Below are positions 421 through 53,995 of a DNA stretch of 64,000 bases, one piece after another (positions within the stretch are counted from its first letter, which is position 1; each line of letters begins with the position of its first letter). A program made the translations under genes and the position numbers. The stretch is from NCBI GenBank assembly GCA_964477895.1, contig CAYZFQ010000001.1, positions 343,750-407,749 on the forward strand, given 5' to 3'. Below the pieces are notes generated by a model. The model was not told where the DNA came from, did no database searches, and saw nothing but the letters and a program-made list of their open reading frames with translations. This DNA comes from an uncultured Bacteriovoracaceae bacterium (GTDB lineage: Bacteria; Bdellovibrionota; UBA2428).

Positions 421-483
421 GGGTCCTCACGAACGAGGCGAAGCTTTCTATGCTTCTTTTGTTACGGGGTTATCCGTCCAGAT

Positions 484-624
484 TTAAGACCGGTTCTTGC
501 GTGAACTCCGTCGTCTTTTCCATGACTTATAAATACGGCTCAACTTCTCGATCAATGTGACGATAAGAACCATGCAGTACAGCATGGCTCCAACAAGACG
601 CAGGATATTGTTAGTATCTTGCAT
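484..624 (-). CDS. small membrane peptide A, 46 aa (MQDTNNILRLVGAMLYCMVLIVTLIEKLSRIYKSWKRRRSSRKNRS); type-I-toxin-like or small regulatory membrane peptide
   Basis: ATG at 624 is preceded by a perfect SD AAGGAGG with a 5-nt spacer. A hydrophobic helix is followed by a polybasic tail. Paralog of the 905..1024 peptide, with the same N-terminus and identical SD/spacer geometry. Confidence 0.45.
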   Translation of the reverse strand: MQDTNNILRLVGAMLYCMVLIVTLIEKLSRIYKSWKRRRSSRKNRS

Positions 625-833
625 AGTGGCCTCCTTTTGAGAGGACCATCCTTGGGCCGACCTCGTTCCGTGAGGACTAGGTTGGCCCAAGCAATTTTAG
701 TGCCTAGATTATTCTGCGCAGAGTTCGAAACATAATTAGGATTGGTGTTGAGGCGCGTTTGAGTCGTATTGATTAATAGAACCTCAGCACTTTGGAATAT
801 TATCAGCGTAAAAAACTTGGCATGAATAATGTA

Positions 834-872
834 GGGTCCGACCTCAACCCTCAACGGATTGAGGTCGGACCC
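834..872. repeat. perfect palindrome/hairpin: 14-bp stem GGGTCCGACCTCAA / TTGAGGTCGGACCC with 11-nt loop; contains tandem CCTCAAC heptads
   Basis: Read directly from the sequence. It lies about 30 nt upstream of the SD of peptide B. The 5' arm (GACCTC) could alternatively pair with the SD region (GGAGGTCC). The motif recurs at 13514..13542. Confidence 0.7.
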
Positions 873-904
873 ACGGATGGACAATCCTAAAGAAGGAGGT
901 CCAT

Positions 905-1024
905 ATGCAAGATACTAACACTATCCTGCAACTGATCCGAGAGCTAGTGAACATACTGGTTCTCCTATCGGCACTTGCCGATAGAGTCTTGAGCCGAAAA
1001 AAGAAGAAAAGGAAGAAATCTTAA
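905..1024 (+). CDS. small membrane peptide B, 39 aa (MQDTNTILQLIRELVNILVLLSALADRVLSRKKKKRKKS)
   Basis: Below the 60-aa ORF-track cutoff. Found by hand: AAGGAGG-tccat-ATG at 893-907. Hydrophobic core plus KKKKRKK tail. Paralog of peptide A, divergently oriented. Confidence 0.45.
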   Translation: MQDTNTILQLIRELVNILVLLSALADRVLSRKKKKRKKS

Positions 1025-1183
1025 ACAGACCTCAAGGATGAGCCTTTCTAGTGGAAAAACTTAACTTTTAACAAATGACGCAGGAATAGCGTCGCCCAAT
1101 CCGTTGGGGGCCTTTGATGGGCCATGGCCTTCTGTGCTGAAAATCCTAGATTTAAATCTCAGATTCTATGGACAAAGCTAGGT

Positions 1184-1528
1184 TCAAGTCATCCACTGAT
1201 GCGCGGAGAATTTCACAATGACGAAGATGTATACGATCCAAATTATCCAGGAAATGAAAAGGTATCGTCCAATGGCAACCAAATGCTGAACAGAGGAAAG
1301 CCTATGGCTCCTAGGCAGATAAAAGAAAACGGCCAGTGAAAGCACCAAATATGCCAATAAATTTAGCCCCGAAGCTAAAGAAAGAAGAACGGTTGAAAGG
1401 GCTAACAAGAAAATTTCAAGATAAAGCCTTCGGGGGGAGCGCCGTTTTACAAGAAAAAATAGAATCAAAGCCGCGAAGCCAAGTAGGCCCGGCAACAACA
1501 GAGTTGGATTCTTGTTTAGAAGCTCCAC
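1184..1528 (-). CDS. possible small integral membrane protein (114 aa, GTG start), uncertain
   Basis: Hydrophobic multi-TM-like ORF in an AT-rich (about 40% GC) stretch. No SD. Overlapping plus-strand ORFs at 1124..1339 and 1336..1569 are alternatives, so the coding strand is unresolved. Confidence 0.2.
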   Translation of the reverse strand: MELLNKNPTLLLPGLLGFAALILFFLVKRRSPRRLYLEIFLLALSTVLLSLASGLNLLAYLVLSLAVFFYLPRSHRLSSVQHLVAIGRYLFISWIIWIVYIFVIVKFSAHQWMT

Positions 1529-1676
1529 TATTTTATTGTATCCGGTTTTTTGGAAAATTTAATTTATAAATATCCAACGACTAAAACGCTCAACTTGCAT
1601 CGATAGCTCCGAGATTTTCCGAACATGCCAATTCACTTCCTTTTTTAACAACCCTAGCCTCCAAATCCCCCCCCCC

Positions 1677-1686
1677 ACGTCCCCTC
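1677..1686. repeat. homopolymeric C10 tract in a C-rich leader about 50 nt upstream of lepA
   Basis: Counted directly: positions 1677-1686 are all C, followed by CACGTCCCCTCCCCACCACC. Confidence 0.9.
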
Positions 1687-1734
1687 CCCACCACCTTCGA
1701 CGCCATCCCCGATCTCGTGTAAGAAAAGCTCTCC

Positions 1735-3591
1735 ATGCCAAGCACACCCGTAAACCGTATCCGCAATTTCTCGATCATCGCTCACATTGACCATGGCAAA
1801 TCTACTCTGGCCGACCGACTTATTGAATTCTGCGGGGGCCTCACCAAACGCGAAATGCAGTCCCAAGTCTTGGATTCCTTAGAGATCGAGCGCGAGCGTG
1901 GCATCACTATCAAGGCCCAAACGGTGCGCCTTAAGTACAAGGCCAAAGACGGCATCGAGTATATTTTAAACCTTATCGATACCCCCGGGCATGTGGACTT
2001 CACCTACGAGGTTTCGCGCTCACTTGCCGCCTGTGAAGGTGCCGTGCTGGTGGTGGACGCTTCTCAAGGCGTTGAGGCCCAAACTCTAGCTAACGTGTAC
2101 ATGGCCTTGGATGCCAATCTTTCCATCGTGCCTGTGATCAACAAAATCGACTTACCTTCAGCCGATATCGAGGCGGCTCGGGCGCAAATTGAAGATGTGA
2201 TTGGTATCGATGCTAGTGAGGCCATTCCTTGCTCGGCTAAAGAGGGAATCGGCATCCAGGAAATTTTAGAAGATATCGTTCGTAAGGTTCCCCCGCCTAA
2301 AGAAATTCTCAATGAGCCTCTGCGCGCACTCGTGATGGACAGCTGGTACGACAACTACCAAGGTGTTGTTTTGCTCGTGCGCATTATGGGAGGGATTCTA
2401 CGCAAGGGCGAACGCGTTCAGCTTATGTATATGAATGCGCAGATTCCCGACGATGAAACAAAAAAACAATATCTCGTCACTCGAGTGGGTTACTTCACTC
2501 CCAAGGCTACCGACATAGAAGAAGCCGGCCCGGGCGAGGTGGTCTTTGTGGTTTCGGGAATTAAGTCGGTGCGTGAAACCCGCATTGGTGACACCCTCAC
2601 TCATTGGCATCAGCAAAGTTCCGATAAAACTTTTGAAGTGGCCAAAGAGCCCCTGCCTGGATTTAAAGAAGTGAGATCAGTCGTTTTTTCAGGAGTCTTT
2701 CCCACGGATTCTAAAGATTTTGAAAACCTCAAAGAAGCTTTGGAGAAGTTGGTTCTCAATGACTCGGCCCTCACTTTTGAGCCCGAGTCCTCGGCGGCCC
2801 TAGGATTTGGCTTTCGCTGTGGTTACCTAGGACTTTTGCATATGGAAATAGTACAGGAGCGCCTCGAGCGAGAGTATGGCTTGGCGCTGATCTCCACCGC
2901 CCCTAGTGTGAAATATAAAATTCGTAAAACCAATGGCGAAGAGATTGAGATCGAAAATCCTTCTAAGATGCCAGCGCCTACTCTGATTGAAAAAATCGAA
3001 GAGCCTATGATTATGGGCACAATCCATACTCCCGCGGAATATGTGGGTGCGGTAATTACTCTCTGTGAAAAGCGTCGAGGAATCCAAGAGCGCATCGACT
3101 ATATTACTTCTGATCGCTGCGCCGTGATTTACCGTATGCCCTTGGGCGAAATGGTATTTGATTTTTATGATCGTTTGAAATCTCTCACCAAAGGTTATGC
3201 AAGTTTTGAGTACGAACTCGCCAGTATGCAGGAAAGCGACCTGGTGAAGCTTGATATTATGATCAACGGCGAGAATGTAGACGCTCTTTCGCTGATAGTG
3301 CACCGGTCGAAATCCTACGAACGGGGTCGCGATCTCACCGCCAAAATGAAGGAAGTCATTCCTCGGCAGCAATTTGAAATAGCCATTCAGGCCGCTGTGG
3401 GTGCCAAGATCATTGCCCGGGAAAGTTTGGGCGCTTTGCGTAAGAACGTCTTGGCCAAGTGCTATGGGGGCGATATCTCGCGCAAGCGAAAGCTCTTAGA
3501 AAAGCAAAAAGAGGGGAAGAAGCGCATGAAGAACATTGGCGTGGTGGAAGTTCCTCAGGAAGCTTTTCTTGCCGTCCTTAAAGTAGAGTGA
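1735..3591 (+). CDS. lepA: elongation factor 4 (LepA), 618 aa
   Basis: N-terminal G-domain [24 protein letters not shown] and NKIDL motifs. Length and C-terminal LepA domain are typical. Confidence 0.95.
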
Positions 3592-13343: not shown

Positions 13344-13513
13344 TTTTAAAATTTTAACATATTGAGCACCTGCGTTTCAGAATTTAAGTACCCCTGGATT
13401 TTCGGTCATACGCCGTCAAAAATCCATCTGCCTTATTGACCAATGATTTCCTAAGTAATCTTGCATCAATAACCGCGAAATTTTCCGCCCAACAACCTGG
13501 CACGAAAAATCTA

Positions 13514-13542
13514 AGGTCCAACCTCAACCCTCAACGGATTGA
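13514..13542. repeat. second copy of 29-nt motif GGTCC(G/A)ACCTCAACCCTCAACGGATTGA (28/29 identical to 835..863)
   Basis: Direct comparison of the two loci. This copy lacks the 3' stem arm and sits in the divergent intergenic region between 12540..13343(-) and 13615..14667(+). Confidence 0.7.
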
Positions 13543-13556
13543 AAGCAAAACGCCGG

Positions 13557-13567
13557 CCCCCCCCCCC
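13557..13567. repeat. homopolymeric C11 tract, 15 nt downstream of the motif and 48 nt upstream of gene 13615
   Basis: Counted directly (gg-CCCCCCCCCCC-tcactcc). Confidence 0.9.
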
Positions 13568-13614: not shown

Positions 13615-14667
13615 GTGATTCTAAGCAAATGCCGAGCCAAGCTCCTTATATCGCTGATATTTTTTTCAGGCGCTGCGCAGGCTAAATTAGATTTTGCTAC
13701 AGCAACTGAAATACTCCGGACTTCCAGAAGTCATAGCAGTCAGGTAATAGCAGCGGCCATTTCCGAGCTTTTTTCCTATCAAAGAATTGAAGGACAAAGG
13801 CGGCAAGTTTTCGAAAGTCTGCCTTTGGCCGACAAAACTCTTTTTTTAAAACAAATCTCGAAACTCAGTCCAGCGGAAGCTTTTTCCTACTTAGAGTTTG
13901 CACCAACTTATATAGGACTCGCGAGTGCCCAGGTCAGCTCTGATTTGGAGATGAAGGCCTACGTTGAGGTCTACCTCGAAGTGCTTTCCCAATTTCAAGG
14001 ACGAGGAGTTAATTATCTCTGGGGGATCGTATCGACTCTTCCGCACTCTCCTTTTAGTCCGCAAGCGATCTCCCAAAAGGATGCTGCCATCGCTGAAATA
14101 TATTCTCGGCTGAGTCTGCTTGAGCATGATGAGAGCTTTTTGAACGTTGAAATTAATCAGGTTCAAAGCAGCTATAAGGTGACTGATATTCAGCCTCTGG
14201 AACTTCTCGAGACCCAGATGAGGGAAGGGGCTGCTCCCTTAGCTTTTTCTGCATGGAATCGCCTAGCCTTTGGCCTTACTAACCACCGAGGTCCACGTGC
14301 CCAGGCCCTGCGTCAAGACATCTTAGATCGCGCGTCTCCCGACATGGCCATCGCCGTGCTGACCGGTCTTCTTCGAGGCCATAACGACGCCGATACCTTC
14401 TATATTTTGCTCCGGGCCCTAGGTGAAAACTTTCGACCGGACTCCCTTGCTATTCGGCAAGCGGCTTTAAGGGGCCTTCTACACTTCGAGGGGCCTGGCG
14501 TTGAATTTCTACTGGGGCGCGTGCTCTCGTCCACCTATGCCAAACAGGGCTTTGAGAAAGACCTCATTAAGCACCTTCGCACGCATAAGCTCGGTCGCCT
14601 TCTGTCGTGCCCGGGCGCCTTCCCCAATTCGGCATTGCCTGCCACTCCCGAATCCTCTAAAAGGTAA
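13615..14667 (+). CDS. hypothetical secreted protein, 350 aa
   Basis: N-terminal signal peptide (LLISLIFFSGAAQA). No recognised domain. Confidence 0.55.
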   Translation: MILSKCRAKLLISLIFFSGAAQAKLDFATATEILRTSRSHSSQVIAAAISELFSYQRIEGQRRQVFESLPLADKTLFLKQISKLSPAEAFSYLEFAPTYIGLASAQVSSDLEMKAYVEVYLEVLSQFQGRGVNYLWGIVSTLPHSPFSPQAISQKDAAIAEIYSRLSLLEHDESFLNVEINQVQSSYKVTDIQPLELLETQMREGAAPLAFSAWNRLAFGLTNHRGPRAQALRQDILDRASPDMAIAVLTGLLRGHNDADTFYILLRALGENFRPDSLAIRQAALRGLLHFEGPGVEFLLGRVLSSTYAKQGFEKDLIKHLRTHKLGRLLSCPGAFPNSALPATPESSKR

Positions 14668-53519: not shown

Positions 53520-53728
53520 TTGATTTGTTGAGTGTGCTTAACGCAGAAAGCTATAAGACGCAATGCATTATCTCCCTTAAAAAGTATTTTATGCAGCTGC
53601 CTAAACTTTAGACAGTTCTGGCCAGAGACTAGTCAGATTAAGCCTTTTAAAATCAATGACTTACAGCTGGGCCCTTCATTGTAAACGCTGGCATAGCTTC
53701 TGCAACATTGTCAGAAGGAGGCTTTTTT

Positions 53729-53995
53729 ATGTTCCATGTCGGGAAAATTTCGCTCTTAGTATTATCAGTTTTGGTGGGTTCTAAGGCCTTCGCAGCTCCA
53801 TCTCATCAAGCTAATGCCCAACCACAAATGTCGAGGTCTGAAGCCACCCAGGGCAGCCGGGGTGCGGGTTATGATTTGAATTTTAATGCCGCTCTTTGTG
53901 GCGTAGATGGACCGAATATTGGTCGATTCCAAACCGACAGTCGCAGCGAAAATCCTCGCAACCGTGGATTCGACGATCACAATAACGACAGCTAA
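53729..53995 (+). CDS. small secreted protein, about 88 aa
   Basis: AGGAGG SD 7 nt upstream of ATG 53729. Signal peptide ISLLVLSVLVGSKAFA. Confidence 0.45.
   Translation: MFHVGKISLLVLSVLVGSKAFAAPSHQANAQPQMSRSEATQGSRGAGYDLNFNAALCGVDGPNIGRFQTDSRSENPRNRGFDDHNNDS

Follow-up and report, generated by a model that had tools for sequence, protein, structure and literature searches.

Two paralogous membrane-peptide genes with perfect ribosome sites

We analysed a 64,000-nt stretch of DNA (contig CAYZFQ010000001.1, positions 343,750 to 407,749; hereafter the window) from an uncultured Bacteriovoracaceae bacterium of the Bdellovibrionota, a phylum that includes predatory bacteria. Near the start of the window, between a ribbon-helix-helix (RHH) gene and lepA, lie two divergent mini-genes for small, basic-tailed peptides. 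A preliminary description had presented them as a pair of paralogs that are separated by a perfect 14-bp palindrome and may form a toxin-like or regulatory system controlled at the RNA level. Both genes were recovered when open reading frames (ORFs) of at least 20 aa were listed for positions 1-2400: peptide A (46 aa, MQDTNNILRLVGAMLYCMVLIVTLIEKLSRIYKSWKRRRSSRKNRS) on the minus strand and peptide B (39 aa, MQDTNTILQLIRELVNILVLLSALADRVLSRKKKKRKKS) on the plus strand. The paired AAGGAGG-N5-ATG sites were confirmed as well, with the Shine-Dalgarno (SD) sequence at 636..630 and the ATG at 624 for A, and the SD at 893-899 and the ATG at 905 for B. Because AAGGAGG is rare in the window (9 occurrences on both strands of the whole 64 kb) and a clear SD is missing from most of its long ORFs, the two perfect sites are not background.

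Reciprocal tblastn searches supported the paralogy of A and B (E = 5e-5 to 7e-5), and beyond these two, tblastn with the peptides detected no full-length copy anywhere in the window. At the DNA level the genes share an inverted repeat (566-636 / 893-963; 71 nt, 72% complementary). The alignment of the two loci contained a 3-nt indel, which is in frame, and the inverted duplication ran on into both untranslated regions (UTRs). Each peptide begins with a short acidic stretch, continues with a single hydrophobic helix at residues 7-25 and ends in a polybasic C-terminal tail, a predicted layout that fits an N-out/C-in single-pass membrane peptide. In all members of the family described below, the 19-residue Kyte-Doolittle window at residues 7-25 scored 1.84-2.77, and the net charge was +5 to +9, concentrated in the tail. 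The predicted transmembrane (TM) helix, the tail charge and the conservation of the family bear out the earlier view of small membrane peptides with basic tails. The region had also been called AT-rich, which is true only mildly: its GC content is 39-49%, against a mean of 48.5% for the window.

A peptide family under purifying selection

A hidden Markov model (HMM) search of 1.84 billion representative proteins returned four relatives (E = 1.5e-17 to 9e-6). One of them is called at 46 aa (P0003), two (P0004 and P0005) are called about 60 residues too long, with the true start at M61, and P0006 probably uses an alternative start codon. In loci L012 (6995-7309, 104 aa) and L013 (33-350, 105 aa), gene callers had run 60 codons up through the structured 5'UTR. 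The members available at the DNA level are A, B, L009, L012 and L013, P0006 being represented by its protein only. The family shares the motif MQD..IL.L...IVLIV.LIEKLSR..K..KRR, and all five DNA members have an ATG preceded by an SD at optimal spacing. Compared with L013, the most distant DNA member, dN/dS (the ratio of nonsynonymous to synonymous substitution rates) was 0.11-0.21, with an excess of third-position changes. The peptides are thus conserved in other genomes and under purifying selection. Peptide A is of the conserved type; B, its diverged paralog, has no called relatives. Both A and B are missing from a collection of 15 billion proteins, and the family is systematically misannotated or unannotated.

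Other searches added no further member. A word-indexed protein search gave no match with the A+B alignment and only P0003 and P0006 with the five-member alignment. Scanning 185,579 GTDB species genomes, a set of species representatives that excludes the window's own genome, for GGAG-N4-9-MQDTNxIL yielded 4 matches versus about 5 expected by chance, and each of the four was the N-terminus of a long protein unrelated to the family. When metagenomes were scanned with the family profile, 72 stretches matched the pattern, and the one apparent relative (L014) was a false positive lying within a 404-aa gene on the other strand. Neither viral contigs, scanned with the invariant 17-mer, nor plasmids and phages, searched by tblastn, yielded a relative; the single viral match was a chance occurrence inside a phage gene. 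A 46-aa gene at 2018-2158 of L012 was also considered and is unrelated to the family.

In L012 (7295-7330), the stop codon has shifted upstream (...AAGAGCTGA), and the ancestral end of the ORF, CGGTCTTAG, is unchanged in what is now the 3'UTR. This suggests that the former ORF end was kept for a reason at the RNA level.

A folded mRNA module present twice in inverted orientation

The unit at this locus is a self-contained mRNA module of about 290 nt, present twice in inverted orientation, and not a gene pair plus a palindrome (Table 1). Its conserved order is an upstream motif, hairpin H1, GGATGG with hairpin H2, the ORF and a 3'UTR in which an AACAAAA linker joins hairpins H5 and H6 ahead of a 17-nt tail. 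Conservation at the nucleotide level spans the whole of these ~290 nt, UTRs included, across unrelated contexts. Both copies carry an invariant GGATGG and a small hairpin enclosing the SD and spacer, a further hairpin that includes the start codon, and one of 10 bp within the ORF. The preliminary description mentioned neither the conserved 3'UTR nor the long-distance pairing of the two RNA ends.

Table 1. Positions of the two modules, their parts and associated elements in the window.
Feature	Position	Strand	Remarks
Module A	423..705	minus	complete conserved transcript unit; nhmmer and alignment with L009, L012 and L013
A upstream motif	690..705	minus	AGGCACTAAAATTGCT; conserved in all modules
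A H1	654..688	minus	5' stem-loop; imperfect, dG -21 kcal/mol
A H1, apical part and 3' arm	677..660	minus	5' partner of the long-distance pairing
A H2	625..651	minus	GGATGG and anti-SD UCCUC / SD AAGGAGG (636..630); dG -10.4 kcal/mol; SD unpaired at a probability of 0.02-0.19
A ORF	484..624	minus	predicted TM helix at residues 7-25; basic tail
A H3; H4	624..598; 591..566	minus	start-codon hairpin; in-ORF hairpin
A 3'UTR hairpins	440..477	minus	H5 477..464, H6 456..440, linker AACAAAA; pairing 100%, with compensatory changes
A 3' tail	423..439	minus	GCCTCGTTCGTGAGGAC; complementary to 677..660
Module B	818..1110	plus	diverged paralogous unit; nhmmer E = 8e-73
B upstream motif	818..833	plus	TGGCATGAATAATGTA; -24 element good, -12 GC changed to GT
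B H1	834..872	plus	dG -31.6 kcal/mol; positions 846-865 pair with the 3' tail of B
B H2	875..904	plus	encloses SD 893-899 and spacer; dG -12.4 kcal/mol
B ORF	905..1024	plus	contains H3 (905-931) and H4 (938-963)
B 3'UTR hairpins	1056..1093	plus	H5 1056-1069, H6 1077-1093
B 3' tail	1094..1110	plus	GCCCAATCCGTTGGGGG; complementary to loop and 3' arm of B H1
Lineage-specific insertion	421..1698		carries both modules and a four-TM orphan ORF
Solo B-type remnant	13497..13545	plus	upstream motif with 5' arm and loop of H1; nhmmer E = 0.006

The palindrome is exact (arms 834-847 and 859-872, loop of 11 nt, 39 nt in total) and leaves a gap of 20 nt to the SD and of 32 nt to the ATG of B. It does not separate a pair, however: it is B's own 5' stem-loop, and its homologue in A lies at 688..654. 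Its CCTC tracts could pair with the SD, as had been supposed, but the conserved predicted partner is a local anti-SD, which in B is the UCCU at 885-888 within the hairpin at 875-904. Nor does the idea of a divergent pair as the functional unit stand, since every relative is single-copy; A and B are paralogs rather than partners.

In the spacer between the modules, a perfect 10-bp palindrome (TCTGCGCAGA, 711-720) lies just upstream of the promoter-like motif of A and is a possible regulator site.

Covariation and pairing of the RNA ends

Compared with dinucleotide shuffles, the folds of B and A had z-scores of -6.9 and -3.5, respectively, and RNAalifold recovered H1-H6 with double changes at 17 pairs. 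Covariation was counted for the named structure (H2-H6 and the long-distance helix) on a MAFFT alignment of the five DNA sequences. In this structure 89.6% of cells were paired, versus 40-48% when the partners were slid, and 14 pairs had changed on both sides in a compensatory manner versus 0-3 when slid, a result reached by none of 500 shuffles. Local H1 was paired in 90.7% of cells (matched by 2 of 500 shuffles), and the long-distance helix alone in 85.9%, with three double changes. Modules A and B differ at many paired positions and keep every helix, so that they form a natural series of compensatory mutations.

The long-distance helix joins the two ends of each RNA. In A, GCCTCGTTCGTGAGGAC (439..423) is predicted to pair with GTCCTCACGGAACGAGGT (677..660) in a duplex of -33.0 kcal/mol, and none of 1000 shuffles paired as well; in B, GCCCAATCCGTTGGGGG (1094-1110) is matched by AACCCTCAACGGATTGAGGT (846-865), where a repeat finder reported 14 nt at 93%. 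Across all five sequences, RNAduplex gave cognate 5'-3' duplexes of 17-21 bp and -31 to -35 kcal/mol (p <= 0.002). The pairing is specific to each copy: the 5' segment of A pairs with its cognate tail at -33.0 and with the tail of B at -24.7 kcal/mol, and the 5' segment of B with its own tail at -32.6 and with that of A at -27.0 kcal/mol, so that cognate duplexes are 6-8 kcal/mol stronger than cross-pairs. H1 and the end duplex share nucleotides and are mutually exclusive structures. Because both are conserved on these shared nucleotides, they appear to represent two alternative RNA states, both under selection.

In each of the five sequences, H2 folded with a dG between -10.4 and -13.1 kcal/mol, and it showed compensatory changes. 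The unpaired probability of the SD core was 0.00-0.20 in every construct folded (the full-length RNA, versions lacking the tail or H6, and one with an alternative 5' end), and translation is therefore predicted to be off by default. RNA-level control, raised earlier as a possibility, is strongly indicated by the occlusion of the SD together with the covarying helices.

Insertion history and neighbouring genes

The contigs of the relatives carry one module copy each, in unrelated contexts. The module adjoins ybeY in L009, L010 and L011 and rsmB in L012, and the P0006 gene lies between the genes for a peptidase M17 and a DUF2400 protein; L013 is a 506-nt contig with no called neighbours. Each of the five modules whose context is known meets a convergent gene (RHH, an ORF of 114 aa, ybeY, rsmB or DUF2400), with 0-75 nt between the module's 3' end and that gene's stop codon; five such cases out of five have a chance probability of about 3%. 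The 3' hairpin with its U-run forms a terminator-like structure only for the oncoming direction (440-460, plus; 1077-1100, minus): H6 of A followed by TTTTGTTAC resembles an intrinsic terminator when read on the plus strand, as does H6 of B with ATTTGTTAA on the minus strand.

The neighbour at 178-420 is indeed an RHH gene, as described before (RHH_3, PF12651, E = 2e-13). Among named LepA proteins, those most similar to the window's LepA come from metagenome-assembled genomes of Bdellovibrionales and Bdellovibrionota (82% and 76% identity). In five relatives (L015, L016/L017, L018 and L019; LepA 81-88% identical), RHH_3 ends 13 nt before lepA and the peptide module is absent from between them, and no peptide copies were found among the loci of 8 other relatives. 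The RHH-lepA distance in the window is 1.3 kb, and 31 nt of the ancestral RHH end and spacer persist as a relic at 1699-1729, just upstream of lepA (26/32 positions match L015). The empty sites in relatives and this relic together identify 421-1698 as an insertion, and with such a 1.3-kb block between RHH and lepA, lepA must have acquired a new promoter. RHH as a partner of the peptides was rejected, since it adjoins lepA in five relatives that lack the peptides, and the relatives that have the peptides lack an RHH neighbour; judged from this synteny, it is the ancestral neighbour of lepA and a bystander to the modules. A conserved RHH-peptide adjacency, as in an RHH-linked type II-like pair, was not found.

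The insertion also includes an orphan ORF (1184-1528, minus) of 114 aa with about four hydrophobic segments, convergent with B. It had no match in Pfam, NCBIfam, PADLOC or PHROGs, formed a singleton cluster, and has no homologue next to the relatives of the peptide. Farther along the window, the solo remnant (CTGGCACGAAAAATCTAAGGTCCAACCTCAACCCTCAACGGATTGA) lies ~70 nt upstream of ORF 13615-14667 and keeps 14 nt complementary to the 3' tail of B (1097-1110); its RNA, if transcribed, could pair with B mRNA. Taken together, the sequence comparisons show that the module arrived in the 1.3-kb insertion, was then duplicated in inverted orientation, diverged and left a solo remnant.

Three further observations concern lepA and its surroundings. 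The leaders of lepA (1665-1700) and of ORF 13615-14667 (13556-13567) contain long C-runs, CCCCCCCCCC, and the lepA leader continues further along with CCCCTCCCCACCACC. A partial Rfam match to AsrC at 1757-1822 (minus), within the 5' end of lepA (E = 2.7e-5, 26 bits versus a gathering score of 111), most likely reflects conserved lepA GTPase coding sequence and not an RNA gene. Two assemblies of close relatives break off upstream of lepA, at a distance of 69 nt in L019 and 21 nt in L020, in both cases at or inside the 3' end of RHH; this could be due to chance or to an assembly break at a repeat.

Upstream motif and antisense signals

The upstream motif of A, AGGCAC-N5-TTGCT, has one mismatch to the sigma54 consensus TGGCAC-N5-TTGCW (-24 GG and -12 GC, as GG-N10-GC). 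The motif fits sigma54 in A, L012 and L013, and the fit is imperfect in L009, B and the remnant. Sigma54-like motifs are not above chance in the window (38 observed versus 30.8 expected); sigma54 activators exist in the lineage, and relatives carry an activator gene near the locus. The promoter may be of the sigma54 type. A start at such a promoter would fall inside the 5' arm of H1, so that the 5' end of the RNA would be exactly the tail-pairing segment. Alternatively, the motif could be a -10 element (TAAAAT), or it could supply the U-tract with which an antisense terminator ends. A sigma28 promoter was ruled out by its spacing, and a scan for sigma70 -35/-10 elements found no promoter at the right place. 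On the antisense strand, terminator-like signals are formed by the mirror of H1 with CAAUUUU and by H6 with UUUUGUUA. The miRNA-like Rfam matches at 833-873 were set aside as generic hairpin matches.

Another of the window's few perfect SDs belongs to a gene at 53689-53995 (plus), in which TGGCAT-AGCTT-CTGCA, a good match to the sigma54 -24/-12 elements, is followed by AAGGAGG-N7-ATG. Its 88-aa ORF has a signal-peptide-like N-terminus (MFHVGKISLLVLSVLVGSKAFAAPS...) and no Pfam match.

A candidate type I toxin-like family and its alternatives

The mRNAs of toxin-antitoxin systems of type I (T1TA) are 150-400 nt long, encode peptides of 20-60 aa and feature SD/anti-SD pairing, 5' stem-loops and 5'-3' interactions (PMC8594479); in aapA1 and hok, 3' processing activates an inert mRNA whose ends are paired (PMC5416894). 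The present unit of ~290 nt, with peptides of 39-46 aa and a predicted TM helix, falls within these sizes (PMC8594479). Its SD is sequestered in the same sense, H2 being conserved and the SD unpaired at a probability of at most 0.20 (PMC8594479), and its 5'-3' interaction competes with a local 5' structure, as in hok- and aapA-like mRNAs. Because a tiny basic-tailed peptide, a ~290-nt mRNA, an occluded SD, competition between H1 and end pairing, and a patchy, multicopy spread by insertion with one decayed copy occur together here, we propose, with a probability of about one half, that the modules represent a new candidate family of type I toxin-like genes with mRNA gating in the style of hok and aapA1. 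By analogy with those systems, the full-length RNA would be a stable, inert form locked through its 5'-3' pairing; trimming of the 3' end, or another trigger, would let the 5' end refold; and the peptide would then insert into the inner membrane, where it would do harm or arrest growth. The antitoxin would be a cis-antisense RNA that covers the 5'UTR and ribosome-binding site (RBS) and could end at the H1 mirror and CAAUUUU.

Several results weigh against this proposal. The earlier suggestion of a type I-like toxin holds as the best available account of the mRNA architecture and the peptide, but no antitoxin RNA was found: none of the Rfam families reached its gathering score anywhere in the window, and the module contained no conserved antisense promoter of the sigma70 type. 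No conserved sequence for a divergent small RNA (sRNA) lay upstream of the motif across loci, and an upstream sRNA on the tisB/zorO model was rejected because the flanks are not conserved. The sense strand has no recognisable terminator. Removal of the 3' tail in silico, or of the 3' end as hok and aapA1 would have it, did not expose the SD, so that end pairing by itself would not explain activation, unlike in aapA1. No toxin family in Pfam, PADLOC or PHROGs matched; in Pfam at E values up to 10, A gave only noise (DUF4231, HemY_N) and B nothing, with Hok/Gef, Ldr, TisB, Fst and Ibs unmatched. The covariation rests on five DNA sequences, four of them ~85% identical. Finally, dN/dS among the three closest members was 0.5-0.8, with few changes and with synonymous sites under constraint from the RNA structure.

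The strongest competitor, which we consider possible but distinctly less probable, is a small membrane protein without toxicity, such as a regulator induced by stress or a stabiliser of a membrane complex, that is made from a gated mRNA and has no antitoxin. The structure of the mRNA would then serve stability and conditional translation in response to temperature, processing or sigma54 induction. Such a protein would account for the failure of Rfam and the promoter scan to detect an antisense gene or promoter, and its SD hairpin, being local and constitutive, resembles RNA thermometers or translational tuners. The sigma54-like motif, the activator gene near the relatives' locus and the second strong-SD small gene with a sigma54-like promoter (53689-53995) point the same way, and many small single-pass membrane proteins are described as regulators (PMC12648545). 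On the other hand, a patchy, non-syntenic distribution with insertion, duplication and a remnant is typical of selfish TA-like loci, and competition between end pairing and a 5' hairpin is a hallmark of toxin mRNAs among known cases (PMC5416894, PMC8594479).

A more speculative variant, to which we give little credence, is that the module is an antitoxin-less or 'borrowed-antitoxin' toxin gene that is wired post-transcriptionally to whichever gene it lands behind. The module always lies tail-to-tail with a host gene, and its terminator would stop only oncoming transcription, so that transcripts reading in from the neighbour would end exactly after copying an anti-tail. Expression of the neighbour would then decide whether the 5'-3' lock holds or is cut. 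The module would be a selfish element, its gene perhaps driven by sigma54.

A structured non-coding RNA, or a small mobile repeat akin to a miniature inverted-repeat transposable element (MITE), with an incidental ORF is an improbable account of the module. The 5' segment and the 3' tail do form an inverted repeat, the sites vary and in every case adjoin a convergent gene at its 3' end, nucleotides are very highly conserved, synonymous sites included, and the remaining reading frames are also fairly open. The ORF nevertheless has a strong SD at optimal spacing and an ATG in 5/5 DNA members, the amino acid motif and the hydrophobic/basic layout are kept even in the diverged B and in P0006, and both the dN/dS against L013 and the in-frame indels speak for coding. 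A larger hairpin encloses the left arm of the repeat, and conservation continues upstream of it; this arm is therefore internal and not a terminal repeat. Two full copies and one remnant in 64 kb, with none at the 8 other relatives' loci, are not the many near-identical non-coding copies with terminal inverted repeats by which MITEs are recognised.

Least probable of all, and very unlikely, are secreted or lytic peptides of bacteriocin- or holin-like type with the 114-aa ORF as immunity protein: the insertion does include this four-TM ORF convergent with B, but the peptide relatives have no 114-aa homologue nearby, neither a leader or processing motif nor a transporter was found, and the searches of phages, plasmids and viral sequences found no homologues. 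A par/fst-like arrangement was rejected because it requires direct repeats read in opposite directions; the repeats here are inverted, and a convergent RNA would therefore mimic the 5' segment and not pair with it.

Comparison with known systems

Type I-like systems are undescribed for Bdellovibrionota in the literature consulted (PMC12390103), in which no relevant Bdellovibrio paper was found. Such systems are hard to find because their peptides are tiny and unannotated. If the candidate type I toxin-like reading is confirmed, the lack of similarity to known families would argue that the architecture is ancient or has been reinvented repeatedly.

Among Gram-positive systems (txpA/ratA, bsrG/SR4 and fst RNAI/RNAII), a convergent transcript overlaps the 3' end of the toxin mRNA. 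The present modules resemble them in that H6 with its U-run forms a terminator-like structure for the opposite strand only and each copy faces a convergent gene. They differ in that a dedicated convergent promoter beyond the tail is not conserved, so that any convergent RNA would be read-through from the neighbour. The tisB/istR-1, zorO/orzO, shoB/ohsC and dinQ/agrB systems share a small hydrophobic or amphipathic membrane peptide and an RBS that is structurally blocked until processing, but in them a divergent sRNA gene lies upstream of the toxin, whereas the divergent neighbour of A is a second toxin-like copy.

The hok/sok system of plasmid R1 and enterobacterial chromosomes likewise combines a small membrane peptide with a stable folded mRNA of a few hundred nt. 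It is also alike in its 3'-5' pairing (fbi/tac), its inert full-length form and its multicopy loci with decayed chromosomal copies (PMC5416894, PMC8594479). In hok/sok an alternative 5' structure forms once the 3' end is removed, and here the alternative H1 is conserved. The differences are that the present modules have no Hok_Gef Pfam match, no Sok-like RNA in Rfam and no apparent conserved mok-like overlapping frame, that their SD is occluded by a local hairpin independently of end pairing, and that the host belongs to the Bdellovibrionota.

In aapA1/IsoA1 of Helicobacter pylori, the SD is exposed by 3' trimming, a mapped antisense RNA, IsoA1, covers the 5'UTR, and the sequences are unrelated to those described here. 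The two systems are nevertheless alike in a basic-ended peptide of 30-50 aa, an mRNA of ~250 nt, an end-paired inert form and SD-sequestering hairpins, in the lack of a canonical terminator beyond the end-pairing helix, and in single or multiple loci with ghost copies (PMC5416894, PMC6733600). Confirmation of the toxin-like function would thus extend the hok/aapA1-style design, in which an inert mRNA with paired ends, an occluded SD and a refolding 5' end are combined, to the Bdellovibrionota.

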